A stretch of DNA of 64,000 bases from Rhodothermales bacterium (GTDB lineage: Bacteria; Bacteroidota; Rhodothermia; Rhodothermales; VXPQ01), in NCBI GenBank assembly GCA_965232485.1, contig OZ246975.1:2027246-2091245 (forward strand), given 5' to 3'. Positions within the stretch are counted from its first letter, which is position 1, and each line of letters opens with the position of its first letter. Of this stretch, positions 440 through 18,262 are shown piece after piece. The translations under genes were made by a program, and so were the position numbers. Below the pieces are notes generated by a model that saw only the letters and a list, made by a program, of their open reading frames with translations, searched no databases and was not told where the DNA came from.

Positions 440-1663
440 ATGAACACGCATTCGGGCAAGTTTCCCAATCCTTTCCGGCCGGGGGCCGGGCATCAGCCCC
501 CTTACCTTGCGGGACGCGAGACGGAAAAGCAAGCATTTGGCCGGCTCCTCGAACAAGAGGTCATCCTTGAAAACATGGTGCTGACCGGCCTGCGCGGGGT
601 TGGAAAGACGGTGTTGCTTGAAACCCTGAAGCCCCTTGCACTTGATCGCGGATGGCTGTGGGTCGGGGCCGATCTAAGTGAAACCGCCAGCCTGCGGGAA
701 GAGCATATGGCCACTCGGCTATGCACCGATCTGTCGCTTGTAACTTCCTCTGTGGTGGCGTCTGTCAGGCAAGTTCAGCCTTTGGGGTTCGGCGCGAGCA
801 CAAAAACGGTGGAGAACCGGCTTGACTACCGGACCCTGACGGATATCTATCGGCAAACGCCAGGGCTTGCGCTCGACAAAATCAAAACGGTGCTCGAAAC
901 AGCGTGGGCAGCGCTGGCCCACACGGAAATACGCGGAATCGTTTTTGCCTACGACGAAGCCCAAAACCTTGCCGACCATGCCGACAAGGAGCAATTTCCC
1001 CTCTCGCTGCTTCTGGATACATTCCAGTCTATACAAAGGAAAGAACTTCCTCTGATGCTCGTATTGACGGGACTGCCAACGCTCTTTCCGTCGCTCGTGG
1101 AGTCGCGGACTTTTTCCGAACGCATGTTTCGCGTGGTTTTTCTCGACCGTCTTTCGGAAGACGATAGCCGCGAAGCGATTCAGCGGCCTGTCGCCAATAC
1201 GAAAGGAACCGTGCAACTGAGTGATAACTCCGTAGACATGATCGTGAAAATGTCCGGCGGTTATCCATACTTCATCCAGTTTATTTGCAAGGAAGTGTAT
1301 GATGCGTTTATCCAGCGTATAGACAGGGGCGAAGACGCCTCCGTGCCTACCTCAGAGATCATGCAGAAGCTGGATACGGATTTCTTTGCCGGGAGATGGA
1401 GTCGGGTAACGGACCGGCAGCGGGAACTGATGCTCGTCATCGCGCAACTGGATAGTAGCGACAGCGAATTCACTGTACAGGAGGTGGTGAAAAAATCCAA
1501 TGCCGTACTTGACAAGCCATTCAGCAGCAGTCACGTAAATCAGATGCTATCGACGCTGAGCGCCCGTGGCATGGTTTTTAAGAACAGGCATGGTCGATAC
1601 TCCTTCGCGATACCGCTTTTGGCGAGTTATATCCGGCGCCAAATGGATGGAACGGGAGAGTAA
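440..1663 (+). CDS. AAA-type ATPase with C-terminal winged-helix-like tail (ORC/Cdc6- or Arch_ATPase-like; function unknown)
   Basis: 407-aa ORF. AGGAGG (428-433) lies 6 nt upstream of the ATG, behind an AT-rich stretch. Walker A LTGLRGVGKTVLL and Walker B-like IVFAYDEAQN are present. Family assigned from motifs only. Confidence 0.75.
   Translation: MNTHSGKFPNPFRPGAGHQPPYLAGRETEKQAFGRLLEQEVILENMVLTGLRGVGKTVLLETLKPLALDRGWLWVGADLSETASLREEHMATRLCTDLSLVTSSVVASVRQVQPLGFGASTKTVENRLDYRTLTDIYRQTPGLALDKIKTVLETAWAALAHTEIRGIVFAYDEAQNLADHADKEQFPLSLLLDTFQSIQRKELPLMLVLTGLPTLFPSLVESRTFSERMFRVVFLDRLSEDDSREAIQRPVANTKGTVQLSDNSVDMIVKMSGGYPYFIQFICKEVYDAFIQRIDRGEDASVPTSEIMQKLDTDFFAGRWSRVTDRQRELMLVIAQLDSSDSEFTVQEVVKKSNAVLDKPFSSSHVNQMLSTLSARGMVFKNRHGRYSFAIPLLASYIRRQMDGTGE
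594..1644 (+). repeat. 1051-bp direct repeat, copy 1 (inside the intact ATPase gene)
   Basis: Aligns with 5109..6159 at a constant offset of 4515 bp. I found 3 mismatches by eye (756, 1073, 1627). Identity stops sharply at both ends. Confidence 0.9.
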
Positions 1664-1802
1664 AATTCCCGAATGTCGGGTTACGGGCTCACGCGATGGA
1701 GTAAAGACCGAGACCTTGATCCCGTGACGCACTGCCTGGCAAGCAAACTATCTGACAGGATTCAACGTAGCGCCCACCCGTCCGGACTAGGGCGTGTTAA
1801 CA

Positions 1803-2560
1803 CTAAAGCAATGCGTCGACGATGAGCACGAAGACGACGAAGCCGAGGAATACAACGTCGAGTTTTTCGAAGCGCGAGAAGATGCGCCTAAACCCCTTCA
1901 GACGCCGGAACAAACGCTCGATTTCGTTGCGCCGCTTGTACATCTCGCGGTCGTACTCCCAAGGGGCAAGGCGGTTTCTCTTCGGCGGAACGACGGGTAC
2001 GAACCCGAGGTCAAGCGCCAACTGGCGCGTACTGTCGTCTTCGTACGCACGATCCATCACCAACGCAGGACTGTTCGATGGCCTCTCCATGCCGCTCAAG
2101 AGCTTGCGGCCTTCGGGCGCGTCGTGCGCCTGGCCGGGAGAGAGCGAGAACGAGAGGGCCGTTCGAGCATCCGCGGCAACCATATGAATCTTGGCGCTCC
2201 AGCCGCCACGAGACTTGCCGATGGCTTGCGGACCGTTTTTTTTTCCGCGCCCGTACCGTCCGGATGGACCTTGACGCTGGTGCTATCCAGCCCCACCGCC
2301 TCGATCTTGATGCGCACGATTTGCTGCAGTTGCAGGTGCTCGAACACGCGGTCCAGAACGCCGTTTTTCGACCAGCGGTTCATTCGCGTGTAGATAGTGT
2401 GCCAATTGCCAAAGCGTTCGGGCAGTCCGCGCCACTTGCAGCCGTGCTCGGCCACGTAAAGGATCGCGTTAAGCACCTGAATATTCGACAGGCTCACGTT
2501 TCCGCGCTGTTTCGGCAGCAGCGGCGCGATCCGTTCAAACTGGGCCTCCGTGAGTTTCAT
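1803..2560 (-). CDS. IS5-family DDE transposase, two overlapping frames joined by a -1 frameshift
   Basis: The upstream frame starts MKLTEAQFERIAPLLPKQRGN (ATG at 2560). The downstream frame contains KIHMVAADARTALSFSLSPGQAHDAPEGRKLL...YKRRNEIERLFRRLKGFRRIFSRFEKLD. Shifting -1 at the A9 run gives the continuous sequence ...GTGAEKKNGPQAIGKSRGGWSAKIHMV... Confidence 0.85.
2236..2244 (-). other. A9 slippery run (A_AAA_AAA), candidate programmed -1 ribosomal frameshift site of the transposase
   Basis: Nine consecutive T on the plus strand, located where the two transposase frames overlap. The zero frame reads GAA AAA AAA ACG. Confidence 0.6.
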
Positions 2561-3085
2561 GTTCTGATGTTCTGAATTTAGCCTTATATTTCCGCGTCCC
2601 GAAATAACGCAACGAAGGACATCATGTTTCCTGTTAGTGTTAACACGCTCTAAAAGCAATAAAGAAGGCTTTCGGCATGGGCGGGGATGAAGACAGGAGC
2701 ATTCGCCCCCTATAAAGCCCCCTACGCGCCCGTAGCCCGGCTTTGAGGCGAACGGCGAATTTGCCCGGCCAACGCCCGGAAACGCCGTCTGCGGGCGTTC
2801 TGGTGCGCTGGACGCGAACCCCTGAAACCATGAAAAGCGACGATCCCGGCCCGAACTGCATCCAGACGGGAACCGGATTCCGAATCAGAACGCCGAATCC
2901 ATTCCCCTGTCCCAGTGCGGCAAGCAGAAAGGCGGCGTTATGCTCTGGCCATCGAGGAGCAAGAAGGGTTTTTGCTCCGTGCGCTGGTTTTGTTACCCTT
3001 GCCGGACGGAATGCCTCATCGAGGAGTACGACGGGATTCCCGAACCCCACAGGAACGCCGCCCGGAAACGCCTTTGCGCAGGGGC

Positions 3086-3114
3086 TTGACATTGTCCAGG
3101 CGATGCCTTATGCT
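3086..3114 (+). promoter_or_regulatory. sigma70-like promoter candidate (TTGACA-17 nt-TATGCT)
   Basis: TTGACA at 3086-3091, a 17-nt spacer, then TATGCT at 3109-3114, about 70 nt upstream of the low-GC ORF starting at 3184. Confidence 0.35.
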
Positions 3115-3183
3115 ATGGATACGCACCCGCCTGCGGCTGTTGCGGCGGGCTTTTATACATCCAAATACATACTGGTTTTTCTT

Positions 3184-3630
3184 ATGCGTAATAAGTTACT
3201 CCTTCTCGTTTTTGTTTTGCTGTCTGGGTTATTTACCCAAGAAGGTAAATCTAAAGAATACACGTCTACAATCGTAGGCCCATGTGATCATATGTCATAT
3301 GTTGCGCCTAATAGTTGGACTAAATCTCCAAGACAAATATGTTTAGAGGAAATAAACGATGTAAATTCTGGATCTAATGACCCTATTTCTATTGCGGGCC
3401 CTACCAGAGGCCCTACTTTTTGTGCAACCCATATACTTCGGTATGGAGGCCCCGAAAAAACGTATGATTGGCGAGGATGCGTAAGCCGAATGAGAGCATA
3501 TTGCCATAGAGAAAACGGTAAACGAATTAAGTTTAGAACATTTATTTATATTCATTTACCGTATCTTACAACCGCCGATCTTGGCGCCTATTTACGGATA
3601 GAAGAAGCACGTTGTGAGTCTTACTACTAA
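3184..3630 (+). CDS. hypothetical secreted Cys-containing protein (low-GC gene)
   Basis: The internal ATG gives MRNKLLLLVFVLLSGLFTQEG, a signal-peptide-like N-terminus. GC is markedly lower than the surroundings. The longer track ORF (2743..) runs through a high-GC region and is probably not translated. Confidence 0.5.
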   Translation: MRNKLLLLVFVLLSGLFTQEGKSKEYTSTIVGPCDHMSYVAPNSWTKSPRQICLEEINDVNSGSNDPISIAGPTRGPTFCATHILRYGGPEKTYDWRGCVSRMRAYCHRENGKRIKFRTFIYIHLPYLTTADLGAYLRIEEARCESYY

Positions 3631-3731
3631 CATCTATTGATATTAAAAATCCTTATGCCTATGCGTATACGCTACTGCAATTAGCTATTTAGCATTGCTT
3701 GTTTATAGGACTCCCTAACTGCGGTGACATT

Positions 3732-4331
3732 ATGAAAACCCAAATCGCTTTTGTTTTAGGTATCATCTGTATCATCCTGGCATCTTGCGATTCGCAAGAT
3801 GATACAGATGATATTCCTCCTCCTGTAACTAAAGAACAGGCTTGGTTATATGAAGCGGATGCTTGGGAAACAGAATCCTTGATGTGGCACCAGATGCATT
3901 TGTCTTTTGACTCCCTTAATGTAATTATTGAGAATGAAGGCGTTGACTATGAATATTGGGATTCTTTAGAATTAATTGTGTCTAATTTAGACGAGGCTAT
4001 TGTATTTGCAAATAACAATTCTACGGCATTCTATGATAGTTCTCAGTATACCTTAAGACGTTCTATAACTACTCGTAAATTTGCGAAAAATGAATGTTAT
4101 GATAAATGGGTTACTCGTCGAGATAGTGCAAATGTTCATAAAAAATCAATTATATTTTATGCTTCTTATTTTGATAATCGTATTTGGATTCCCCAAGTAG
4201 ATTCTATCATAAATAAAGCAAATGTTGCTCAAGTTGCATGGAATATGTCCGCGGAAAAATGGCATGAATTATGGCTATGGGATAAATCACCTACTTTGTA
4301 TCAAATTACTGATAATTGTTTAGTGAATTAA
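3732..4331 (+). CDS. hypothetical lipoprotein (low-GC gene)
   Basis: MKTQIAFVLGIICIILASCDSQDD is a signal peptide with a lipobox-like ILASC. Low GC. No recognisable domain. Confidence 0.55.
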   Translation: MKTQIAFVLGIICIILASCDSQDDTDDIPPPVTKEQAWLYEADAWETESLMWHQMHLSFDSLNVIIENEGVDYEYWDSLELIVSNLDEAIVFANNNSTAFYDSSQYTLRRSITTRKFAKNECYDKWVTRRDSANVHKKSIIFYASYFDNRIWIPQVDSIINKANVAQVAWNMSAEKWHELWLWDKSPTLYQITDNCLVN

Positions 4332-4412
4332 ACAACCTTGTGCTTAAGAATGTTTCTGATGTATGGCTTATGTTTGGGGTGCGCATCGGGCCGGGCTCGG
4401 CAGAACGGCGCG

Positions 4413-4516
4413 AAACAACCCGAAAACTGCGCAACGCATCCGAAAAACTGCAAAAAACTGCGTTTTGCTGTCGAAAACTGTCGAAAAACGCAGAAAACAA
4501 CCCGAAAACTGCGCAA
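4413..4516 (+). repeat. iteron-like repeat cluster
   Basis: The 22-bp direct repeat AAACAACCCGAAAACTGCGCAA occurs at 4413-4434 and 4495-4516. Between them lie five consecutive 10-bp units of the form (C/T)NGAAAA(A)CTG (4441-4490). Confidence 0.5.
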
Positions 4517-4680
4517 AAAAGCAGGAATCTTCACTTTCGGCATAGTCCGGTGCAATGAAGCGCAAGGGCGCGGTATGCCTTCGCGGGGCGGCGCGAAGCC
4601 GCGGGGACGGGCGCATCGAGGCCGCGCCCGTCCCGCATCATGCGCAAAAGCGTTGCATTTCCACCGGTAAACGCATATAC

Positions 4681-4722
4681 CCCAAAAATCAGCCCAAAAT
4701 CCCCCAAAATCAACCCCAAACG
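4681..4722 (+). repeat. phased CCCAAAAT A-tract repeats (about 10-12 bp period)
   Basis: The sequence is cccaaaaatcag cccaaaatcc cccaaaatcaa ccccaaacg. Helically phased A-tracts sit immediately upstream of the Rep-like ORF. Confidence 0.45.
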
Positions 4723-4778
4723 CGCCGTTTCGGGCATAAAACGCGCCGTCGCGGCGGCACAGGCAACGGCGTTCGGGA

Positions 4779-5144
4779 TTGGACGCATTGTGGGCGTACC
4801 GGCTTGACCTTTCCGGCATAGGGACGCGCCGGGCGCAGAAAACGGCGCGGGCTATCTTGCTTGAACTTGTCGGGATGATCAAATGGAACCCGGACGCGGA
4901 CGACTACGGCCAGGCATGGCCAACCGTCGCAAAGATTGCGGCGCGGATAGACCGTAAACCGCGGGGCGTACAGTACATCATGCGGCGGCTTGAAGCGTCC
5001 GGCTACGTCGTTCGGAGCATCCGCAAGCGTTCCGACGGGGGCAACGCATCGAACCTTTACGCGCTGAATCCGGCGGCGCGGGGTGTGGATAACCCCGCAG
5101 TTTGTGCAGCGGGGTTGGAAAGACGGTGTTGCTTGAAACCCTGA
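4779..5144 (+). CDS. winged-helix DNA-binding protein, plasmid/phage replication-initiator-like; its 3' end runs into the repeat junction
   Basis: 121-aa ORF. The segment WPTVAKIAARIDRKPRGVQYIMRRLEASGYVVRSIRKRSDGGNASNLYALN looks like an HTH/wHTH of small Rep-type proteins. The last ~12 codons lie beyond the junction at 5109. Confidence 0.4.
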   Translation: MDALWAYRLDLSGIGTRRAQKTARAILLELVGMIKWNPDADDYGQAWPTVAKIAARIDRKPRGVQYIMRRLEASGYVVRSIRKRSDGGNASNLYALNPAARGVDNPAVCAAGLERRCCLKP

Positions 5145-6163
5145 AGCCCCTTGCACTTGATCGCGGATGGCTGTGGGTCGGGGCCGATCTAAGTGAAACC
5201 GCCAGCCTGCGGGAAGAGCATATGGCCACTCGGCTATGCACCGATCTGTCGCTTGTAACTTCCTCTGTGGCGGCGTCTGTCAGGCAAGTTCAGCCTTTGG
5301 GGTTCGGCGCGAGCACAAAAACGGTGGAGAACCGGCTTGACTACCGGACCCTGACGGATATCTATCGGCAAACGCCAGGGCTTGCGCTCGACAAAATCAA
5401 AACGGTGCTCGAAACAGCGTGGGCAGCGCTGGCCCACACGGAAATACGCGGAATCGTTTTTGCCTACGACGAAGCCCAAAACCTTGCCGACCATGCCGAC
5501 AAGGAGCAATTTCCCCTCTCGCTGCTTCTGGATACATTCCAGTCTATACAAAGGAAAGAACTTCCTCTGATGCTCGTATTGACGGGATTGCCAACGCTCT
5601 TTCCGTCGCTCGTGGAGTCGCGGACTTTTTCCGAACGCATGTTTCGCGTGGTTTTTCTCGACCGTCTTTCGGAAGACGATAGCCGCGAAGCGATTCAGCG
5701 GCCTGTCGCCAATACGAAAGGAACCGTGCAACTGAGTGATAACTCCGTAGACATGATCGTGAAAATGTCCGGCGGTTATCCATACTTCATCCAGTTTATT
5801 TGCAAGGAAGTGTATGATGCGTTTATCCAGCGTATAGACAGGGGCGAAGACGCCTCCGTGCCTACCTCAGAGATCATGCAGAAGCTGGATACGGATTTCT
5901 TTGCCGGGAGATGGAGTCGGGTAACGGACCGGCAGCGGGAACTGATGCTCGTCATCGCGCAACTGGATAGTAGCGACAGCGAATTCACTGTACAGGAGGT
6001 GGTGAAAAAATCCAATGCCGTACTTGACAAGCCATTCAGCAGCAGTCACGTAAATCAGATGCTATCGACGCTGAGCGCCCGTGGCATGGTTTTTAAGAAC
6101 AGGCATGGTCGATACTCCTTCGCGATACCGCTTTTGGCGAGCTATATCCGGCGCCAAATATAA
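5102..6163 (+). pseudogene. 5'-truncated second copy of the AAA ATPase gene
   Basis: Homology to copy 1 begins inside the Walker A codons (copy 1 residue ~52). It has no equivalent N-terminus, RBS or promoter. The C-terminus differs (..RRQI* versus ..RRQMDGTGE*). Confidence 0.7.
5109..6159 (+). repeat. 1051-bp direct repeat, copy 2
   Basis: See copy 1; offset 4515 bp, near-identical. Confidence 0.9.
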
Positions 6164-6195
6164 TGTGGAATGATACGTTGCGGGCGAGCGAGGTT

Positions 6196-6996
6196 TCACG
6201 GTTCGGTACTACTTTCTTTCGGGGCCCGTTTGCGGGTCCGCCTGGACTCGCCCAGAATCCACCGGGGCTTCAGATCGAGATGGAATCGCGTGTTGGCCGC
6301 CTTGACAATAGCGGAAACGGCCTCTTCGGGGGAATCGGTGATCGTCCATCGCTCGGCGTCTTCCGGACTGATCGTGCCTTCCCGAACCATCGCGCCGGAA
6401 ACGAAGTCGATCATTTCCGACCAGTATTCGGCGCCCATCACGACGACAGGCAAATCCAGAATTTTGCCGGTTTGCACCAGCGTAAGCGTTTCGAATATCT
6501 CGTCCATGGTGCCAAAACCGCCCGGCAACACCACGAAGGCATAAGAGTATTTGACCAACATCACCTTACGGACGAAAAAGTGGTTGAAATCCACCCACTG
6601 GTCCAGATACGGGTTGCGTTCCTGTTCCTCGGGAAGTTCGATGCTGCAACCTATACTGAACCCGCCCGCCTCCTTGGCTCCGCGGTTGGCGGCTTCCATG
6701 ACGCCGGGGCCTCCTCCAGTCATCACCGTGAACCCTGCATTGGCCAGTTCGCTGCCCACTTGTCGAGCCAGCTGGTAGTAAACATGATCTTCGGGGAAGC
6801 GAGCCGAGCCGAAAACCGTCACGCAAGGCCCGACAAAATGCAGTTTGCGAAAGCCCCGGAGGAATTCGAGAAAGATGCGACCGGCCCGGATCAGTTCGGC
6901 CAGCCGCCTGCCCGGCCCGCTCAGGAAAAAGCGTTCTTCAAGCGTGCTTTTTTCGGTGCGCGCAGATCCTGGGGTTGTGTTCTTCGATATTTTCAC
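6196..6996 (-). CDS. LOG / TIGR00730-family Rossmann-fold nucleotide-binding protein (lysine-decarboxylase-like)
   Basis: Motifs: VFGSARF...VMTGGGPGVMEAANRGA...VVLPGGFGTMDEIFE (PGGxGTxxE). GTG start. Confidence 0.85.
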   Translation of the reverse strand: MKISKNTTPGSARTEKSTLEERFFLSGPGRRLAELIRAGRIFLEFLRGFRKLHFVGPCVTVFGSARFPEDHVYYQLARQVGSELANAGFTVMTGGGPGVMEAANRGAKEAGGFSIGCSIELPEEQERNPYLDQWVDFNHFFVRKVMLVKYSYAFVVLPGGFGTMDEIFETLTLVQTGKILDLPVVVMGAEYWSEMIDFVSGAMVREGTISPEDAERWTITDSPEEAVSAIVKAANTRFHLDLKPRWILGESRRTRKRAPKESSTEP

Positions 6997-7255
6997 TTGC
7001 CTGGATTGGATAGTATGAGCAATGCGGTCGAGCCCTCAACTAAAGCCTGTGCAGGATCGTCAAGGACAAAGATACTTGCTCGAACGACGAGGCGCTCCCG
7101 GAATGGGTAATAATCAGAAAAAGTAAATATACCGTATTACCCGTGTTTGCCAATATTGAGCATGCGCGCCGATATTTTTAAACAAGTTATTATTTTTAAG
7201 AATTTATAATAAAATAATGATTGGCGCGGAAACGTTTCCAGAACAAGCGCCCGCG

Positions 7256-8389: not shown

Positions 8390-9760
8390 TCAAGTGTTCT
8401 TGGCAGCGAACCGCCTTATTTCGTCTTCGCTGCGGGGATGGCAGGCACGGTGCACGAGCGCGGCGTTTTCGATCGAGGTCGGGCCTCCCTCGCTGTGGGG
8501 TTCGATGTGATGGAACTCCGCCTCGTTCCAAACGACCTCCTTGCCACAAGCTCCGCACTTCCGCTCATCCCGCCAGTAGACAATCTCACGCTCCAAGGAG
8601 CCTAAAACGCGTCGGCCATCCCGGAGCTTCGGCTGCATGTGCTCCTGCATCTTGGTGCAGAAGAAGAGGTGTCGGTCGCGTATGGCATGCGCCACGTCGC
8701 TACTAGTTCTCGCCTTGTAGCCGTATTGTCGCATGTACTCGAAGTCTCCAGGTTTCATTTCGGCTTGCCCAGCACGCTCGCGAGTCCTGGCTTGGGTGAG
8801 GCGTTCCGTGAAACGGTCGAACGCATCAGCAAACGTTGTCTGCCAAGACTCGGGGACGTATTGAGGATCGAGTAGGGTGCCGACCAACAACACCAAATGG
8901 ATCGCCTGATGACCGACCAGCAAAGGTCGCTTCCCGTCGACCAGCAGCTCGGTCACTGTGCCAATGGCGGCAAGGAATTCCTTGGCGAGCGGCGAGTTGT
9001 TGTCGAACTCCATGTGCTTCACATAGTAGGAATCGACGGCTTTCCGGTTGATGTCGCAGAAACGTCCGTCCTCTCGGTAGGTGGCGAACAACATGACCAT
9101 TTGAGCGGCGAGTTGACGTCCCTTCGGCGTATTGGCCCGAACGTTGGCCCGCAGGAGTTTCCTGAAGAAGTCTTGGCCGGGGTATTTGGCCACGTCCTTC
9201 TTGCCTGCCACCTGACAGACGAAGGCACCGAACGCTCCCGGCCACGCATCCCTCTGCTCTTGAGGCGTCAACGGCTTGCCACCCTGCAACCGAATGAAGA
9301 GGTCGCGCACTTCGTTCTCGTCCTCGGTTTCGATGTGGACCACGGACAGCGGCATCTGGAAGAAGCGCGTGCGTGTACGATCATCCAGTTGATGCATGTC
9401 CCTCCCCGCCCACTCGCAAGGCGAATCGATGAGCGACTTCGGAAAACGCCCCGGGTGCTCTCGTGGATCGAGTAGGGGAAAAGCTCCTTCGGAGAACTCG
9501 TAGAGTGCATGGACCCGCTGCTGACCATCGATGATGTACAGCCGGTCGCCGATTTGGAAGCCACTCACCTCGTTCCCCTTCTTGAAGTGCAGGTAGATCA
9601 GCGGGATGTGGTAGCCTCGGAGAATCGAGTCTATGAAGTACTGCTTCTGTAGGCGCGTCCACACGGGTCCGCGCTGGTATTCGGGGTCCACCTCCAACAG
9701 CTTCTTCTTCTGTAGTGTGAGGAGTTCCTTGACGGTCTGTTGCTTTGGGGTCGATTTCAT
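8390..9760 (-). CDS. DUF262 (ParB/GmrS-like NTPase) fused to a C-terminal zinc-finger HNH nuclease
   Basis: 456 aa. The N-terminus has DPEYQRGPVW (QR at 29-30), IIDGQQR (78-82) and FIRLQGGKPLTPQE. The C-terminus has C402-x2-C405, H417-H418, N432, H437 and C440-H441. Confidence 0.85.
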   Translation of the reverse strand: MKSTPKQQTVKELLTLQKKKLLEVDPEYQRGPVWTRLQKQYFIDSILRGYHIPLIYLHFKKGNEVSGFQIGDRLYIIDGQQRVHALYEFSEGAFPLLDPREHPGRFPKSLIDSPCEWAGRDMHQLDDRTRTRFFQMPLSVVHIETEDENEVRDLFIRLQGGKPLTPQEQRDAWPGAFGAFVCQVAGKKDVAKYPGQDFFRKLLRANVRANTPKGRQLAAQMVMLFATYREDGRFCDINRKAVDSYYVKHMEFDNNSPLAKEFLAAIGTVTELLVDGKRPLLVGHQAIHLVLLVGTLLDPQYVPESWQTTFADAFDRFTERLTQARTRERAGQAEMKPGDFEYMRQYGYKARTSSDVAHAIRDRHLFFCTKMQEHMQPKLRDGRRVLGSLEREIVYWRDERKCGACGKEVVWNEAEFHHIEPHSEGGPTSIENAALVHRACHPRSEDEIRRFAAKNT

Positions 9761-9890
9761 TCGAAAAACTCGCTGGAGAACGGGAACGTCCTTCAGGCCT
9801 CAGCAAGAGGCCGGCCGGCTGGAAACCAAGCTATGTGGTCTGGGTTCCCGGCGCGAGACAGGGGGCATTTGGGGCACGGCAATTGACATT

Positions 9891-12800
9891 TTAGGCCGTG
9901 TACTCTTTCAATCTTTGGTACCGGGGATCATTCTGTATCTCCGGCTTCGCCTGCAAAATGTCCTTTAGACACTGGTTTAGTTCGGGATGCGACCATGGCT
10001 GATCGCTAATGACAGCGTACAGCAAACACAGCGTTGCATTCGGGAATCTTGCACAGAAATCGCCCTCCTGCAGCTGGTGGACAACGTAGTGGGAATACGC
10101 AAGCGGCTGGAGCCAACCGTGGATCAAATCCACCGCATCTGGAAATTTCTCTCCAGCGGCTATGCTCATCAATGCAAGTGACTCCGTGATGTCATCAGAA
10201 ACCAATTCGAGCGATTTTGGCCACATCTCTTGCCAAAAAGGCTGGATACGATTGCTCCAGTAGTCCTCGCGTTGCGCACCTGCGCTTTCAAGCGCTTGCG
10301 AGAGAATTCGTGCCGCTTCCTGCAACCCCTCCTCCTGTGGCAGGGCACTGAACGCCTGCCGAAATCCTGTCGCCTCATCTTTGTCCGTGCATTCCAGCGC
10401 CGCGTAGGTCAGAACTGCAACATACTGCCGCTTGAACTCACCCAAGTCGTCGTAGTGGCTCGCGGTTTCAATGAACTGCGGCCTGAAAGCATCCAGCAGG
10501 GGCCGATAAAGGCGTGGAGACCAGAGGAAGCCTTCCCAGACTATTTGGGCTTCTATGGGATTCTTTGTCCATCGGAAAAGGGGCAACAGATACTGCTCGG
10601 TCCAGGATCGGTCAACCCGAAACAGCGTAATCAATCTTGACGCCAACACTGCTCTACCATGACGGAACTGTTCTACCTGCGTATCACACATTTTCGTGAA
10701 GAGAGGCTCAAGGCCGTCAGGCAGGCGGTCATTGTCGTTCGGCTCGCGCCGGAACCAAAGAGACAACAGCGCTTGGGTAACAAGGCCGACCGGATGGTTG
10801 ATTGCTTCAGTGACAGAGCGCTGGATCCGTTCGCCACCCTGAGTTATTGTTAGGCCAGAACCAGATTCGAAGGGTGAATTCAGAATACGCCGGCACAAAT
10901 CAAGCAGGATTTCATCATGTCCCTCGCCGGATTTGGACGTAGCGTATAGCCACCAGGCAACACCGTGTGCAATCTCCTGCAAAATATTATCAGGCATGGT
11001 CGCTACCAGCGGAGCCGCATAGCGCCACGACCGCTGTACCATATCTTCCTCGCTCCACACCTGTAATGCTTCTCGCCAACGGCTTGCCGGCCAGATGCCT
11101 TGTTGAGCCAAGTCGCAAAGAGCAACAAAGCTCAAGGGGAACTGAGTGCGACATGTATCAGGCCAAGTGTCCTCATCGGACCAATGCTTCTTGGGCGGAG
11201 GAGTCCTTAGCCATTGAACCAAGTCGCGCCGGTTGCGAGGTGCAATATTGATCTCCCTGTTGTCTTCGTAGTCTGGATCTCCGGTTCCACTAATCCAGAG
11301 CGGGAATTCTTCGGGCTCGTGAGGAAGCAATTCCCATGAAGTATTGGTCGAAGACAAGGTATCGAAGCGGCTTTGTGCGGCCTTCCCCAAGTCCAGCCCT
11401 GATGCGTTCAGTTTCGCCAGACGCAACCACACTGAGCGTTTCACAATTTTTTCCCAGTGTGCAGGCTCAAGGTCTTCTGGGTACATGTCGCGCGGAGGAC
11501 CATCCAGAATAGCGGCTTCGAGCATATCCTGAGATGAAGACAGGCAGTGACCTTGTAGCGCCAAGAGGCGCATGACTTCGCGTTGTGTTTCTTCGGACCA
11601 CAGCCACCAACATGCATCACACAGTAACCAGTCAGACCATTGAACCGAATCAATGCATCCATCTTGGCTGGCGGCGAAAAAGGCGAGACGCTTGAACGTG
11701 GGATACGGAAGTTCAAACCATTCCTCTGCAATCCGAGTCGCCCTTGCAAGGTCATCTTCCTGAACAACCTGCCAGGCATCGCGCAGAAGTTCGATCAGTA
11801 TCACCCAGTCGCGGGAGCGCCGATTCTGCCAGTGCGGTTCGATTGAGGGCAGGCCCACAAACGAACCGTCGCTGCGGTCAACTGCCCCGCCTAATTCGCG
11901 CAGGAGATCCAAGGCGTCGCGCAACAATTGCTGTAGATCATCCAATAGCACGGGCAAGGCGGCTCGCCAATGTTCATCGGTCCGATCGCCAATAACCGAT
12001 TGAACATGGTCAGCGGCAAGCACAAGTTCCCAGTCGGGAATGTGTCTCGAGTGCTCGGAAGAATCCGGTTTAACAAGTTCATCAGGCCATCGGAACGGCC
12101 TTCTCAAGGCAATCATGGGCGAAAGAAATTCCCGCAACTTCATACGCAGGGATACAGTCAGGCCGTCGCGCTTCAGGTGATCCACCCACCGGGAAAGACT
12201 GATATCGCCTCGAAAAGATTTCACGCGCCCCCTCAACAATAGACGCCAAAGTAGCCGCATCCTTTCGTCAGGAATAGCCTTTGGAGAATTCGCGCGAATC
12301 TTATCCAGTTCGTCGCTTTTGCCTTCGCGGTTCAGTTTGTCAAGGCGATCAAGCTCGTCCTCGATCAACCCCGCCAATTTCTCATGCAGTCGACTTCCAT
12401 TTTCCACCAGCCAGTAGATCAGCTGAGGGTCGTTAAGGTGTCGCGTCAGCCAGTGGGCGACATAACGCATCACGGCATCCCAACCAGTGTCGCGATTACT
12501 CCCGATGAGCGTCATCCATGGAGTGCGCCCGTAGGATGCAGGTCGATTTATGAAGCTGAACCGGAGATCAGAGTCAATGGGCGGTCGGGACGAGATGCCG
12601 AAGCGACTCAAATCGTCATACCGAAAGCGATTCTCGGAAAATACCGTCAACCACTCGATTGGCGGCGCTGGATTGAGCTCCGCGAAACGCTTGGCTGGAA
12701 GTCCTGATTTATCCGAAAGCGCCCAGAGTACGCGCCCTACGAAGTCATCCTGCTGGGTGCTTGCAGAGGGCCGCGCCAACGCATGTTGAACCACAATCTG

Positions 12801-13712
12801 CTCCTTGCCAAAGACTCCATCGCGGTGGGTTTCCCCCCAGAGTTTCAATGTCTGATGCAGCGCGGCATGGCGGTTCTTTCCTGAACGAACTTCGTAGAGA
12901 ATCGGAAAGACTCCCTTGGACTCCCATGCAATGGATTGGGTCATTTTCTCACCAGGATCGTAACCTCCCAAGGCGTAGGCTTGGGGTGTTGCTTCGCCCA
13001 GCATCCGGTCGGCAGCCAACGCATCCATCATGTAGCGCAACACCGGATCGTTGATGCTATACCCGACAAAACACACCACATAGTTGCGAAACAACTCGCT
13101 GACGAAGCGCGCTGCCCATCGCTCGGTCAGGTAAGCCAAGCCAAAATCGCCGCTGGTAACAACGAGCCTGTGCAGTGCGATCTCGTCTTCGTCCGGTTTC
13201 GAGGGCAACAATCCGTGCAAATAGACGAGCCCATCCCAGCGGCTGGTCTTTGGAATGGGGAGTGTCGGTGCGGTATATGGATGGTACGACTGCTTGCTTC
13301 GTCTGGCAGCGTGCTCAAATATCTGATCGAAATTGGTGGTAACGAGTCGTAGATTCCCATCGCGACCCCGGGCCAGATGGAGGAGCGCGGTGTGGGTATC
13401 GGTAGCCCCGCGGCGTCTGAGTTTGGGTTTCAGGACCTCTGCCAATTCCTTTCGAACGGCGATTCGCTGTCCAGGAAATCGACGTTCCAGCAAGTCTAAG
13501 GCTATGTCGAACTGTTCCCGCTCATAGGCTTTGGCTTCAATCTCGGTAGGATTTGTACCCAATCGCCCATAAATCTTGTCCACCAACCCCTTGAAGCCCG
13601 GCAATCCTGCGGGATAGGAAATGCCCGCTCCACAGAAGAACACTGCGCGGTCCTCTTCGTGCGCCTGCAGAAGAGCATCTGGAATGTCCGGGCCGTTGCT
13701 TATGAATTGCAT
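9891..13712 (-). CDS. 1273-aa protein: N-terminal SIR2-like (SIR2_2) NADase domain plus a ~1000-aa Trp-rich helical C-terminal region; DSR1/DSR2-like architecture
   Basis: Motifs: FFCGAGIS (28-32), VTTNFD (Asn127), YLHG (His166), CFVGYSINDP. The remainder has no motif I recognise. GC looks lower than in the core genes. Confidence 0.85.
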   Translation of the reverse strand: MQFISNGPDIPDALLQAHEEDRAVFFCGAGISYPAGLPGFKGLVDKIYGRLGTNPTEIEAKAYEREQFDIALDLLERRFPGQRIAVRKELAEVLKPKLRRRGATDTHTALLHLARGRDGNLRLVTTNFDQIFEHAARRSKQSYHPYTAPTLPIPKTSRWDGLVYLHGLLPSKPDEDEIALHRLVVTSGDFGLAYLTERWAARFVSELFRNYVVCFVGYSINDPVLRYMMDALAADRMLGEATPQAYALGGYDPGEKMTQSIAWESKGVFPILYEVRSGKNRHAALHQTLKLWGETHRDGVFGKEQIVVQHALARPSASTQQDDFVGRVLWALSDKSGLPAKRFAELNPAPPIEWLTVFSENRFRYDDLSRFGISSRPPIDSDLRFSFINRPASYGRTPWMTLIGSNRDTGWDAVMRYVAHWLTRHLNDPQLIYWLVENGSRLHEKLAGLIEDELDRLDKLNREGKSDELDKIRANSPKAIPDERMRLLWRLLLRGRVKSFRGDISLSRWVDHLKRDGLTVSLRMKLREFLSPMIALRRPFRWPDELVKPDSSEHSRHIPDWELVLAADHVQSVIGDRTDEHWRAALPVLLDDLQQLLRDALDLLRELGGAVDRSDGSFVGLPSIEPHWQNRRSRDWVILIELLRDAWQVVQEDDLARATRIAEEWFELPYPTFKRLAFFAASQDGCIDSVQWSDWLLCDACWWLWSEETQREVMRLLALQGHCLSSSQDMLEAAILDGPPRDMYPEDLEPAHWEKIVKRSVWLRLAKLNASGLDLGKAAQSRFDTLSSTNTSWELLPHEPEEFPLWISGTGDPDYEDNREINIAPRNRRDLVQWLRTPPPKKHWSDEDTWPDTCRTQFPLSFVALCDLAQQGIWPASRWREALQVWSEEDMVQRSWRYAAPLVATMPDNILQEIAHGVAWWLYATSKSGEGHDEILLDLCRRILNSPFESGSGLTITQGGERIQRSVTEAINHPVGLVTQALLSLWFRREPNDNDRLPDGLEPLFTKMCDTQVEQFRHGRAVLASRLITLFRVDRSWTEQYLLPLFRWTKNPIEAQIVWEGFLWSPRLYRPLLDAFRPQFIETASHYDDLGEFKRQYVAVLTYAALECTDKDEATGFRQAFSALPQEEGLQEAARILSQALESAGAQREDYWSNRIQPFWQEMWPKSLELVSDDITESLALMSIAAGEKFPDAVDLIHGWLQPLAYSHYVVHQLQEGDFCARFPNATLCLLYAVISDQPWSHPELNQCLKDILQAKPEIQNDPRYQRLKEYTA

Positions 13713-13805
13713 TGAGTGGGTCTACTTCTTCTCACTGGTCGGGCTATATTAAGAAGCGCAGTGTGTCCGTCCTTGTTTGACGGACTGTCAAGGAAATACT
13801 AAACT

Positions 13806-16361
13806 TCACCCCCGAAACAGCATCTCATTCAGCCGCGCTTGCCACTCCTCCTCGTCAACGACCTCAAAGCGCACTACCTTGCTTCGCATTGCAGGAACGA
13901 ATTGGGCCCAATCTGCCTTGCGGGCATGGTCGCTACAGATATCGAAGACGGACCGCTTGTATTCAGTGTCTTCCGACCCCTTCAGGTGAACGCCTTTGGT
14001 TTCGACTACGAAAACCTGGTGAAAGTCATCATCTGCTTCGGACTCGTCGTCCCGCAACGTCACGATGAAATCGGCGTATATCCGACGTGGCCTCCATCCC
14101 TGCACATAGTAATCCTTGCGAGCACGGTTGCGATACCAAAAGAAGAGCCGGGCTTGTTGATCCAGATAGGTCGCCACCTTGTTCTCGAACTGGTTGAGAT
14201 CATCCTCTGTGGTGACATCGAAAAGGTTCCGCTGGTAGGGGCTGCCGTCCTCCCGGTTCGCCTGCTTCGCTTGTGGAACCTCAATTTTTTCGGGAAGGCT
14301 ATTGAAATCGAGATCCTCTGTGACAACCAGAAAGCGCATCTTGCCTGACTCCAGGAGACGGCGAAAGACTTCCCGCGACAAGCGGTCGCGCTCCATCTCA
14401 ATCTGTCGGCGCAGCTCCTCGAGGATAAAAACATGATTGGCCGCCACGCGCTCGAATGGATAACGCTCAAGCAGTACCCTGAAAGTACGGCGAGCCAAAT
14501 CGCACCCTCGCCACGGATTGGGCACCAGATCCAGCAGGTGGCTGGCAGCAAAAAAGTAATCCACGGGGTCGGTATCGCTGCTTGCCCCAGACCCATTCGT
14601 TGTTTCAACCCCGGAAACATCAAACCCCGGAATGCTTGCGTCATCCGTCAGGTTTGCTCGCAACGCCACATCTCCTTGATTGCCCTCGCCCATATTCAGA
14701 TCGCCCAATGGACTAATGTCGATGTCGCCCCAGGGCACCCTTGAGAGGATGTCCGCCTCGTAATGAACCAGACGCCAACCATCCACACCTCGAATCATAA
14801 AGACAGGGAGGACCAGATCGCGCGCTGCTTTCCGGTAATTATCCCGCTGCCGAGTCATCTGTTTCTCCGCTGGCCCGGTCAGACTTTCATTGGAAACTAC
14901 TCTTCCTTCCAGTCCCTGCAAGCCCTCCAGCCCGAATCCTTTCCTAACTTCTCTCAACAACTCGTTTGCACGACGACTGAAACAGAAGACATAGCTCTCG
15001 TCAAGCCAAGCCACCCTGGTTTTCTGTGCATACGGCTGTCGCAAAATACGCCCGACCAACTGCGTGATCCCCGTTCTTGACATTGGGTTGGTGAGGATCG
15101 TCAGAATGTAGGCGAACGAACAATCCCAACCTTCCTGTAGCGCCTGTTTGGTGATGATGAAACGGATCGAACAGTCACGGGACATCAGACCGCCTATGTC
15201 GTCCACCTCCTTGAGATCGTCTTGTACGCTGGTCTTGACCGCAATGTGCTCCGCGCCGATTCCCGGGTGCTGGAGCAGGTACTCGCGCACGTCGTCGGTG
15301 TGAACGTATCCGGGCTTGCGCTGCTCTTTGCCGGTTCTTTCGACCTGGATTACGCAAATGGGCCGGATGTAGCTCCCGGTCTCCGCTTCGTGCCGCTGCG
15401 CTTCCACCTCCAGGTGCTCGCGGTGTTCGATCGACGCAAGCAACGTATTCCGCCAGTCGTTGCTTGCCTTGTTAAGAATGTGCAGGTCCAGCTTGATCAT
15501 CTCTTCGGCGTTAAGCTCCTGGCCCCGGATCTCGACGAGCACATTGGCGCCCTTGGTTGGCGTGGCCGAAAGCTCCACAATCATGCACGGGTTGAAACCT
15601 TCGAGCGTCGCTTTTGCGTTGGCGCTGTACGCCTTGTGTCCCTCGTCAAGGATGATCAGGGGCCGTAGCAGACGCACTGTGTTGCCAAGCGAGGTCTTGA
15701 TGTAGCGGCCCCAGAAGCCTGTCGTTTGCTCGAAGGTATCGAGATTGGGATATTCCTCCAGCATTTTGGCGTGCGCCGGGGAATCGTCGTCCGGAGGAAA
15801 AAACCGGTCGAAGCCCCCGCTGTCGCGAAACATCCGCAGTGTATCCTTCGTCTGCCGGTTAGCCGACGGAAGCATGAGCAAAAGGATACAAAGGTTCTCA
15901 GCGACATCGCGCGGGCCAAAGGCCATGGTTTTCTCAAGGATGAGCGTACGCTGCCCTGACGCCAGATCGATCTGTTGGCGATAAGGGTGGTCGCGATCCT
16001 TGAGCGCCTTGAGCGTCTGATTGTATATCTGCGTTGTAGGCACGATCCACAGAACGAGCCCGCGCTGATTCTGCCGGAAATGTACGTTGACAAGGTCAAT
16101 CACCTTGGTTGCAAGCAATGTCTTGCCGCCGCCAGTCGGAACCTTGAGGCAGAAAGTAGGCAAATAGTCGCCGAGTCCGTTGCGACGAGGAATACATATC
16201 CTCCCGGGTACTGTCTTGCTCCATGCCCGTTGAACCCAGTCGAAACCCCAATCGGGGTTCTGGCTTCGGGCATCCCCGTCCGCTTTCCTCCACTTTGCGA
16301 GATTCTCAAGGAAATCGTGTACTGTTTCCAGCGTTCGCTTTTGGTATTCCTTCAGGATCAT
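13806..16361 (-). CDS. res: Type III restriction endonuclease, Res subunit (SF2 helicase plus C-terminal PD-(D/E)xK)
   Basis: 851 aa. Walker A VPTGGGKTLLA, DEGH box LIILDEGHKAY, and a C-terminal YADFIV...VFVVETKG nuclease-like motif. The start overlaps the mod stop (ATGA). Confidence 0.9.
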   Translation of the reverse strand: MILKEYQKRTLETVHDFLENLAKWRKADGDARSQNPDWGFDWVQRAWSKTVPGRICIPRRNGLGDYLPTFCLKVPTGGGKTLLATKVIDLVNVHFRQNQRGLVLWIVPTTQIYNQTLKALKDRDHPYRQQIDLASGQRTLILEKTMAFGPRDVAENLCILLLMLPSANRQTKDTLRMFRDSGGFDRFFPPDDDSPAHAKMLEEYPNLDTFEQTTGFWGRYIKTSLGNTVRLLRPLIILDEGHKAYSANAKATLEGFNPCMIVELSATPTKGANVLVEIRGQELNAEEMIKLDLHILNKASNDWRNTLLASIEHREHLEVEAQRHEAETGSYIRPICVIQVERTGKEQRKPGYVHTDDVREYLLQHPGIGAEHIAVKTSVQDDLKEVDDIGGLMSRDCSIRFIITKQALQEGWDCSFAYILTILTNPMSRTGITQLVGRILRQPYAQKTRVAWLDESYVFCFSRRANELLREVRKGFGLEGLQGLEGRVVSNESLTGPAEKQMTRQRDNYRKAARDLVLPVFMIRGVDGWRLVHYEADILSRVPWGDIDISPLGDLNMGEGNQGDVALRANLTDDASIPGFDVSGVETTNGSGASSDTDPVDYFFAASHLLDLVPNPWRGCDLARRTFRVLLERYPFERVAANHVFILEELRRQIEMERDRLSREVFRRLLESGKMRFLVVTEDLDFNSLPEKIEVPQAKQANREDGSPYQRNLFDVTTEDDLNQFENKVATYLDQQARLFFWYRNRARKDYYVQGWRPRRIYADFIVTLRDDESEADDDFHQVFVVETKGVHLKGSEDTEYKRSVFDICSDHARKADWAQFVPAMRSKVVRFEVVDEEEWQARLNEMLFRG

Positions 16362-18262
16362 GGTTCCAGCCTCTCGATCGCCTCGTATATCTGAAAGGGC
16401 AACTGCTGGAAATCGATCCGGTATTCGTGAAGAAACTCTGGATCCAGGTACTTGGCGGGTGCAAAGACGAGCCGCTTACGCTTGCTGCTGGGCAGAGTGC
16501 GGGCGACAGGAAGGGTCAGCGCGAGATTCTTGAGCTTTTCGACATTCGGCTCATAGAGAAGAAAAACATCATGCGACGCGGTGCGACCGACAAACCCGGT
16601 GTCACTGTTAGTCTCGGCCGGGTCGAACTCCTGTCCGGTCGCTGTGAAGAAGATGTACGAGGCGAGCTTCTCCCACGACGGGAGGTGGGAGCCGTCGAGG
16701 AGCGACTCCTGGCGCATGGGGCGCCCAAGCTCGAAGTAGCTGAAGGTGCCACCGAGGCCCTCAGTATGTTCGACAACTGCCGTCTCACCAGCGACGACGA
16801 GTTTTCCTTTCTCGAATTGCCTCGATATTTGGTCGTAATCGTCCCTGTACTGCTCCTCAATGGCCTTCACGGACCCTGTCAGTTTGTCGCTTAGCTTCGC
16901 CCATGTGATCTCCTCCCGCATCAACTCTGTCTTCTGGGTACCCGTGAAGGCGTATCCGTTGATGACGCGCCGGACGCGCTCGGCAGTGATCGTGTCCGCA
17001 TAGTCCTCGCACTCGACCAAAATGAAACGCCGGTTGCCACCGTCCTCCCGGTTCTGGGCGAGGACAGCGTGGGCCGTAGTGCCGGAACCAGCGAAAGAAT
17101 CGAGAACGATGGAGTCGGGGTCCGTGGCGATCTGGAGGATGCGGCGAACGAGGCGAGACGGCTTGACGGTGTTGAATACGTCTTCGGATCGCTCGAATTG
17201 GAGCGCGGAGACCAGTTCTTTCTTTGCTTCCTGCGTGTTGCCAACATCGGTGTGAAGCCAAAGTGTCTGCGGGACGACTCCCTTCCTCACATCGGTCAGG
17301 AATCGCTTGAGGCGAGGCATGCTGTTGCCACCCTTTCCCCACCAAACCCGCCCGTCCTTATCCAGTTCAGCGAACTTCTTGGGAGATACGCGAAAGTAGT
17401 TGCCGACCGACGGCTTGAACTTCTTTCCAGCGGGGCTGGTAACCTCGTAGGTGCCTTGACCGTAGAAATTTCGTGCCGTCAAGTCGCTGGAGGACCACGG
17501 CCCCCGTGGATCATCATCAGGATTCTTGTAACGTCCAGTCGCCCGCTCACTACGCGCTATCAAGTTTGGGCGCCATGCTTCAATGCGCCGCGCGTACGCC
17601 ATCACGTAGTCGTGATCTTCCGAGAAGTATTTCGCGGTGTTCTTCGGGGAAAAGACTTTCTGCCATATGGCGGTGGCCAAGAAGTTTTCCTCGCCGAACA
17701 CCTCGTCCATCAGAGAGCGCAGGTGATGCACTTCGTTGTCGTCGATGGACACGAAGATCGCCCCGTCCTCCCGGAGCAGTTCGCGCAGCAGCTTCAGGCG
17801 CGGCGTCATCATGCAGCACCACTTGTCGTGGCGGGTCAAGTCGTCTCGGTCTACCACCTTGCCCAACCAGTTCTTCATCAGCGGCGAAGTCACGTTGTCG
17901 TTGTACGCCCAGCCCTCGTTCCCCGTGTTGTAAGGCGGGTCGATGTACACGCACTTCACCTTGCCGTGATAGGTCGGCAACAGCGACTTGAGCGCGGCCA
18001 GGTTGTCGCCGTGGATGATCAGGTTATCGCGCAGGCTTGCCTTCTCGCTCAGCCCCTTCTCACGCACTGGCAGCAGCTCGTGGAAGGGCACAGCCAAGTG
18101 ATGGTTCTCGACAAAGACCTTGCCCTTGAAATGGAGTCGCGGCAAAGGATCCCTCCTCTGAAATCTATTATTTAACGTGCATCCACTGCTTTGCCCACTA
18201 GCGCTACGGAACGCCTGCCTTAAACTAAGCCCCGTATTGTCGCCGCACAACCCGTTTTCCAT
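16358..18262 (-). CDS. mod: Type III R-M DNA methyltransferase, Mod subunit (beta-class N6A/N4C MTase)
   Basis: 634 aa. VYIDPPYNTG (motif IV) precedes DSFAGSGTTAHAV (motif I). The first ~40 codons are uncertain. Confidence 0.9.
   Translation of the reverse strand: MENGLCGDNTGLSLRQAFRSASGQSSGCTLNNRFQRRDPLPRLHFKGKVFVENHHLAVPFHELLPVREKGLSEKASLRDNLIIHGDNLAALKSLLPTYHGKVKCVYIDPPYNTGNEGWAYNDNVTSPLMKNWLGKVVDRDDLTRHDKWCCMMTPRLKLLRELLREDGAIFVSIDDNEVHHLRSLMDEVFGEENFLATAIWQKVFSPKNTAKYFSEDHDYVMAYARRIEAWRPNLIARSERATGRYKNPDDDPRGPWSSSDLTARNFYGQGTYEVTSPAGKKFKPSVGNYFRVSPKKFAELDKDGRVWWGKGGNSMPRLKRFLTDVRKGVVPQTLWLHTDVGNTQEAKKELVSALQFERSEDVFNTVKPSRLVRRILQIATDPDSIVLDSFAGSGTTAHAVLAQNREDGGNRRFILVECEDYADTITAERVRRVINGYAFTGTQKTELMREEITWAKLSDKLTGSVKAIEEQYRDDYDQISRQFEKGKLVVAGETAVVEHTEGLGGTFSYFELGRPMRQESLLDGSHLPSWEKLASYIFFTATGQEFDPAETNSDTGFVGRTASHDVFLLYEPNVEKLKNLALTLPVARTLPSSKRKRLVFAPAKYLDPEFLHEYRIDFQQLPFQIYEAIERLEP

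Follow-up and report, generated by a model that had tools for sequence, protein, structure and literature searches.

A duplicated ATPase gene fragment next to a decayed phage-type initiator module in a hypervariable chromosomal interval of a Rhodothermales bacterium

We analysed a 64,000-nt stretch of DNA, referred to below as the window, from a Rhodothermales bacterium (assembly GCA_965232485.1, contig OZ246975.1, positions 2,027,246 to 2,091,245 of the forward strand), in which a 1051-bp part of an ATPase gene is present twice in the same orientation. The window was compared with itself position by position at an offset of 4515, and its first 7.3 kb was additionally searched against the whole window by self-BLAST. 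The proteins encoded in the window were scanned with Pfam, NCBIfam, PHROGs and PADLOC. The comparison loci, which include Rhodothermales metagenome-assembled genomes (MAGs) and metagenome contigs, are labelled L001, L002 and so on, and the comparison proteins are labelled P0006, P0122 and so on. The duplicated gene, its two copies and their borders are as follows (window coordinates).

440-1663, + strand: intact ATPase gene of 407 amino acids, AAA_16/Orc1-like (open reading frame; Pfam AAA_16; phrog_6841; syntenic homologues 89-95% identical in related Rhodothermales)
594-1644, + strand: repeat copy 1, 1051 bp, inside the intact ATPase gene (offset comparison and self-BLAST)
1645-1789, + strand: native ATPase tail (MDGTGE-stop) and native 3' flank, including a diverged copy of a 26-nt motif, motif M (1670-1695), and its ~70-nt tail (alignments with relatives)
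5108/5109: junction J1 between a fragment of a replication-initiator (rep) gene and ATPase codon 52, with a microhomology of TGC and a further A
5109-6159, + strand: repeat copy 2, an ATPase fragment that has no promoter and is cut short on either side, yet still open as the reading frame 5102-6163
6159/6160: junction J2, at which ATPase codon 401 is joined to the spacer between a TPR gene and a LOG gene, the TPR gene being lost; microhomology of ~2-3 nt (AAT)
6160-6195, + strand: native spacer upstream of LOG, with the core of motif M at 6167-6192
6196-6996, - strand: LOG/lysine-decarboxylase-like gene, the native right-hand neighbour of the variable interval (Pfam, synteny)

The offset comparison and the self-BLAST search revealed that positions 594-1644 and 5109-6159 are direct repeats of 1051 bp with 99.7% identity, lying 4515 bp apart, which reproduced the repeat structure described in the initial annotation of this DNA. 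The two copies differed at only three positions: 756 (T/C, Val/Ala), 1073 (C/T, synonymous) and 1627 (T/C, synonymous). The similarity ended abruptly at both edges, with none immediately outside, and self-BLAST of the first 7.3 kb found no further long repeat in the window. We found that copy 1 retained the native promoter region, 5' end and tail of the gene together with ~125 nt of downstream flank, and the homology to the native flank past copy 1 extended to 1727 in L001, to 1743 in L007 and to 1769 in L004. Copy 2 starts in codon 52, within the Walker A motif, and the first 51 codons are gone. As the initial annotation had also stated, the gene tails diverged after the repeat; copy 1 ends in RRQMDGTGE-stop, and the open frame of copy 2 (5102-6163, 353 codons) ends in RRQI-stop. 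This frame differed from that of the rep-like open reading frame that runs into copy 2. Copy 1 is the working gene, and copy 2 is most likely an inert orphan because it lacks a promoter, a ribosome-binding site, 51 codons and part of the P-loop; the earlier description of an intact 407-residue gene and a second copy without its 5' codons and expression signals was therefore correct. The proposed integration of a small replicon was only partly supported, and the ATPase gene in copy 1 is uninterrupted.

To the left and right of the duplication, the window followed the order found in its relatives. The closest public ATPase sequences were from Rhodothermales MAGs and showed 95% and 93% amino-acid identity (best GTDB relative, 95%). 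In L001-L007 and in several metagenome contigs, one ATPase copy was located between the SIS and LOG genes, in the conserved order SIS-domain gene, ATPase, short variable interval, LOG, TonB_C, mfd, gidB and gidA. The related genomes without the insertion, a comparison that the initial annotation had proposed, thus showed a single-copy ATPase locus, and none of the L001-L007 loci carried a second ATPase copy. The window was collinear with the relatives at positions 1-90 and 302-1727 on the left and from 6160/6188 onward, that is, LOG and beyond, on the right. The interval between ATPase and LOG was different in each relative, with lengths of 1.1, 2.0, 2.5 and 7.6 kb in L001, L002, L006 and L007, respectively, and it is hypervariable in this Rhodothermales clade. 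All four of these intervals carried a well-conserved TPR gene, which was ~85% or more conserved among L001, L006 and L007 and was annotated in L002-L004; this gene was not found anywhere in the 64-kb window.

Additionally, the ATPase gene itself was visibly mosaic. At the sites within 594-1644 where L006 and L007 differ from each other, the window agreed with L006 in 65 cases and with L007 in 35, and the L007-like sites clustered at 640-1060, which we regard as evidence of homologous exchange within the clade. A recurrent 5' truncation of this gene was suspected from homologues of 362 amino acids that start at Met46, and this suspicion was dismissed; the upstream 45 codons are intact in L001, and the 362-residue call in that locus (9866-11089, P0006) reflects a miscalled start codon and no truncation of the gene. 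P0009-P0011 are likewise 362-residue gene calls that start at Met46, the miscall being established at L001 alone.

Both ends of copy 2 were novel joints with 2-3 nt of microhomology, and neither J1 nor J2 carried the end of an insertion sequence (IS) or a recombinase site, as is seen in illegitimate recombination. To the right of copy 2, window positions 6160-6967 were collinear with L006 positions 8554-9362 and ran into LOG, and this L006 stretch begins 38 nt ahead of the start codon of TPR in L006. Because the flank matched the TPR-LOG spacer of L006 and the TPR gene was absent from the window, J2 is, as judged from these alignments, a deletion joint. We also considered whether the sequence after copy 2 was a diverged ATPase 3' flank, which would make the repeat end a mere homology boundary; it fitted better as an orthologue of the TPR-LOG spacer in L006 (29/33 nt), and it resembles the ATPase flank because motif M is repeated.

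The DNA between the two copies comprised 3464 bp (1645-5108), which were present only once, and was a mosaic. In addition to the native ATPase tail and flank, it contained the following features.

1790-2649, - strand: IS5-family insertion sequence, 860 bp (Pfam DUF4096 and DDE_Tnp_1; NCBIfam transpos_IS5_3)
2653-3183, no strand: GC-rich (59%) stretch with no family match and no homology to the relatives
3184-3630, + strand: low-GC open reading frame of 148 amino acids with an N-terminal signal peptide; no homologues found
3732-4331, + strand: low-GC open reading frame of 199 amino acids with a lipoprotein signal (LASC); no homologues found
4400-4720, no strand: origin-like region with iteron-like repeats, a hairpin and phased CCCAAAA tracts (4677-4720)
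4779-5108, + strand: fragment of a phage-type replication-initiator gene, winged helix-turn-helix (wHTH) domain only, truncated at J1

The IS encoded its transposase in two frames with an A9 slippery run, its terminal inverted repeats matched at 15 of 16 positions, and it was flanked by CTA on both sides (1787-1789 and 2650-2652). The DDE transposase, the terminal inverted repeats and the short target duplication were thus all those of the IS5 family. Compared with members of the transpos_IS5_3 type, the element was alike in its DUF4096/DDE domains in two frames, its A9 frameshift site, its inverted repeats and its 3-bp CTA duplication, with nothing notable differing; it is a passenger here. 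We considered the IS as a possible joint of the rearrangement and ruled this out, as the clean CTA/CTA target duplication of its own marks it as a simple insertion. No second copy of the IS was found in the window by self-BLAST of its first 7.3 kb. The two secreted-protein genes had a GC content of 36%, compared with 58% for the window, and their products had no match in Pfam, NCBIfam, PHROGs, PADLOC, plasmids or IMG/VR. Of the cargo listed in the initial annotation, the IS, the two low-GC secreted-protein genes and the iteron-like repeats were recovered, whereas the rep-like open reading frame turned out to be only a fragment.

The iteron-like family consisted of four to six copies of CCCGAAAACTGCGCAA at spacings of 21, 30 and 31 nt, two of which are a perfect 22-mer. 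At least three direct repeats of ~18-22 bp with helical spacing therefore adjoin an initiator gene, as in an iteron origin; the full-length wHTH initiator of such an origin was missing. In particular, the rep fragment showed weak matches to both Pfam HTH_36 and Replic_Relax and matched PHROGs of the replication initiation and O-like families. An exhaustive HMMER search gathered 130 rep relatives, and the close ones contain 267-405 amino acids, with a conserved motif at the N terminus and a domain of ~110-180 amino acids at the C terminus. The fragment corresponded to residues 91-187 of the 369-residue P0122, leaving 97 of the 267-405 residues, with stop codons upstream, and neither the N-terminal motif nor the C-terminal domain was encoded anywhere in the window. 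P0122, the closest full-length relative, sits in a phage-like contig with a large terminase and an S78 prohead protease. The initiator module is a decayed one of phage type that breaks off precisely at J1. Compared with a defective prophage remnant carrying a lambda-O-like initiator and iterons, it was alike in having a wHTH domain that matches O-like PHROG families and adjoining direct repeats and a hairpin, whereas only ~0.8 kb of the module survives here and no structural, integrase or other phage genes are present.

These results bear directly on the small replicon that the initial annotation had postulated. Because there is no complete initiator, a 4515-bp circle made of positions 594-5108 is unlikely to have been an autonomous replicon. 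Furthermore, ~1.2 kb of this hypothetical circle is chromosomal sequence of the clade. The rep and cargo proteins had no match in 72,556 plasmid records, phage records, IMG/VR or JGI metagenomes. The perfect 11-bp GC-rich hairpin of the origin-like region (GGGACGGGCGC...GCGCCCGTCCC, at 4604-4634) was matched near rep relatives on two unrelated small contigs (L086, 2483-2508; L091, 3347-3378), which suggests that the hairpin may be a conserved cis element of this replication module.

Motif M was examined as a recurrent feature of the interval. It comprises a 26-nt core, GGAATGATAAGTTACGGGCTTGCGCG, and a semi-conserved tail of ~70 nt, and in the relatives it brackets each small cassette between ATPase and LOG, always in the same orientation. 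Besides the two positions in the window (1670-1695 and 6167-6192), it was found at 11229, 12152 and 13122 in L002, at 9610, 11096 and 12066 in L001, at 8920 and 11231 in L007, and at 8561 in L006. Three perfect copies were present in L002-L004, and two of them flank a 923-bp insertion, encoding an HTH_XRE protein and a 139-residue protein, that is missing from L001. Motif M was absent from the ATPase loci of other phyla and from the JGI metagenomes, and its occurrence is confined to this clade. It resembles an attachment site; identification as an integron attC site was rejected, as there was no conserved stable hairpin on either strand and no integrase or recombinase among the neighbouring genes.

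The ATPase belongs to a family of AAA_16 proteins of ~400 amino acids whose members are 54-73% identical across many phyla, including Planctomycetota, Acidobacteriota, Gammaproteobacteria and Actinomycetes (loci L008-L089). Its homologues were often found on very short contigs, and in L088, another Rhodothermales-like genome, the homologue has a different neighbourhood. The ATPase matched phrog_6841, a PHROG family of unknown function, and had no sequence match in the PDB and no match in PADLOC. This distribution suggests a horizontally mobile gene.

On balance, we favour the interpretation that the duplication is a real and recent local recombination scar, and not an integrated plasmid, which arose by microhomology-mediated duplication and deletion within a hypervariable interval. 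In an ancestor, the ATPase-LOG interval would have gained a foreign mosaic where the native ATPase flank ends, at the site of the TPR stop codon in the relatives. Two genes for low-GC secreted proteins would have been part of this mosaic, together with the origin/initiator module of a phage-like element, the rest of which would then have been present as well. The IS5-family element, which may have inserted before or after this, is now also found there. The stretch from the middle of rep through TPR would subsequently have been replaced by a copy of ATPase positions 594-1644, leaving J1 and J2. This step was probably illegitimate recombination, in the form of a one-step template switch during replication or repair; alternatively, an unequal exchange between sister chromosomes may have duplicated 594-5108, followed by a deletion. 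Every route needs two illegitimate joints, because the native tail and flank belong to the proximal copy and the distal one is terminated by a deletion joint. Spontaneous duplications in Salmonella and E. coli form at microhomologies, share 2-3 nt at their novel joints and are unstable. The structure described here resembles such segmental or tandem duplications, as well as template-switch rearrangements, in its 2-3-nt joints, its near-identical copies and its potential instability, but differs in that just the 1051-bp end, and not the entire unit, is duplicated, so that a concurrent or later deletion is required.

Several observations weigh against this interpretation. The whole unit is not repeated head to tail; as 594-1644 is the sole part that occurs twice, a deletion or template switch has to be invoked in addition. 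Templated patches of 1 kb are uncommon in bacteria, and an unstable 4.5-kb tandem duplication would be an intermediate of the two-step route. An intermediate genome, in which rep would be complete and the remainder of the element as well as TPR still present, was not found in the public collections searched. Finally, copy 1 has the states of L007 and L013 at positions 756 and 1073, and copy 2 has those of L006 and L087; the chance of this pattern at the two single-nucleotide polymorphisms (SNPs) is ~0.013 under uniform new mutation. This hints that the two copies may be two alleles and not a fresh self-copy, which would fit the pattern less well, although a later homologous exchange could give the same SNP pattern because the ATPase gene is visibly mosaic.

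The SNP pattern is evidence in favour of an import of DNA. According to this explanation, which we consider unlikely but worth keeping in view, sibling-strain DNA with the order ATPase, tail, flank, IS, cargo, origin and rep recombined with the resident ATPase by a single crossover, either as a non-replicating circle (Campbell type) or as a linear fragment with one homologous and one illegitimate exchange, known as homology-facilitated illegitimate recombination (HFIR). The resident copy would have been displaced downstream as a 5'-truncated orphan, and its 3' end would have been removed together with TPR by a separate deletion, before or after the import. The A-B-A topology fits such an event, the two copies agree with different relatives in their SNP haplotypes, and copy 2 with its right flank is L006-like. 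Moreover, HFIR displacement that leaves downstream orphan gene fragments has been proposed as the origin of orphan modules at type VI secretion system (T6SS) and Rhs loci (PMC5361080). However, import needs J2 as an independent event that clips the same gene; if a circle was imported, J1 must predate it in the donor, and this circle cannot replicate. No sibling allele or free form was found in the public genome, plasmid, phage, IMG/VR and JGI collections. The C-terminal displacement orphans at Rhs, contact-dependent inhibition (CDI) and T6SS loci (PMC5361080) are alike in that a 5'-truncated gene copy lies downstream of an intact gene with acquired DNA between them. In contrast, the gene here is an AAA_16 ATPase and not a polymorphic toxin, there is no toxic tip, and the copies are 99.7% identical; no divergent 3' tip and no cognate immunity gene were present, as the tail of copy 2 differs only through the deletion and the next gene is LOG. 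The related idea of the initial annotation, an autonomous plasmid of ~4.5 kb with a 5'-truncated ATPase homologue that integrated by a Campbell crossover, retains only part of its appeal. A single crossover with a 4515-bp circle accounts for the A-B-A topology, the iteron-like repeats adjoin a rep-like wHTH reading frame, and foreign low-GC cargo and an IS lie between the direct repeats. As in a Campbell cointegrate, such as an integrated suicide vector or a plasmid-chromosome cointegrate, near-identical repeats of the shared homology flank the insert, reversal by homologous recombination is conceivable, and the locus is single-copy in L001-L007. A plain Campbell event would leave the resident 3' end and flank on the distal copy and incoming DNA behind the proximal one. 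Here, however, no complete initiator is present, and it is copy 1 that has the native tail, motif M and flank of the clade, as found in L001, L002 and L007; the distal copy lacks this resident 3' end and flank and ends in a deletion joint, so that the Campbell route needs an extra event. In addition, rep is a fragment truncated at both ends, its relatives are phage-type (one lies beside terminase and prohead protease genes), the plasmid, phage, IMG/VR and JGI searches gave no match, and part of the putative circle is the chromosomal sequence mentioned above, which together make an integrated plasmid very improbable.

The SNPs also look allelic in the sense that matters for an assembly artefact, in which a hypervariable locus was present as two strain alleles side by side and the assembly linked these through their common ATPase sequence. 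The relatives are all MAGs, so the window is probably MAG-derived too, the locus varies between strains, and the occurrence of ATPase homologues on very short contigs is a sign of assembly breaks. Nevertheless, the partners at J1 have only 3 nt in common, which leaves nothing for a graph or overlap assembler to misjoin, and both outer flanks are in correct synteny; we therefore judge an artefact to be rather improbable. It is harder still to accept a programmed system, in which copy 2 serves as a silent donor cassette that converts the 3' part of the ATPase gene, or in which the segment is a cassette captured at motif M by a site-specific recombinase. The motif brackets small cassettes in the relatives as perfect 26-nt duplications, and copies of it follow both ATPase copies in the window, but J2 lies 7 nt outside the motif core, J1 has no motif, and no recombinase gene is nearby. 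Copy 2, with its three differing sites, would offer no variation for conversion, and no relative has a second copy; a programmed origin thus appears scarcely credible. There is also only a slim chance that the ATPase-LOG interval is a dedicated cassette-capture site, with motif M as the attachment site of an unrecognised cassette-exchange system and the duplicated fragment as its by-product. Such a system would have no nearby recombinase and would be linked to a widely transferred Orc1-like ATPase.

Two further features were observed in the surroundings of the locus. A defence island occupies window positions 8390-18262, between TonB_C and mfd, and encodes a GmrSD-type endonuclease with an HNH domain, a full-length Dsr1 (SIR2, 2012 bits against PADLOC) and a type III restriction-modification pair (Res and Mod). 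In L001 and L002, TonB_C and mfd are adjacent, with no island. Additionally, an AT-rich element of ~37 nt (TTTTTTAATAAGTTATTATTTTTTAGGTATTTATAAT-like) is found repeatedly, both upstream of the ATPase gene and in the stretch from LOG to TonB_C, at 60-100, 361-400 and 7173-7213 in the window and at 9699-9735 and 14290-14344 in L002; it may be a promoter or terminator module.

The duplication itself is of little importance, as it represents an ordinary kind of microhomology-joined duplication beside decayed phage and IS DNA. The case shows that an A-B-A pattern with iterons and a rep-like open reading frame can imitate the integration of a plasmid. The locus, a cassette interval next to a defence island, is a hotspot of strain-level variation, and hotspots of this type can fragment or mislead metagenome assemblies. 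Provided that the structure is real, its 1-kb repeats turn the 4.5-kb segment into a copy-number variant that can be reversed. Given the behaviour of direct repeats, recombination between them would either pop out a non-replicating 4515-bp circle, leaving the ATPase with the short tail that ends in RRQI-stop, or amplify the segment, and a RecA-dependent pop-out or amplification of this kind should in principle be possible.

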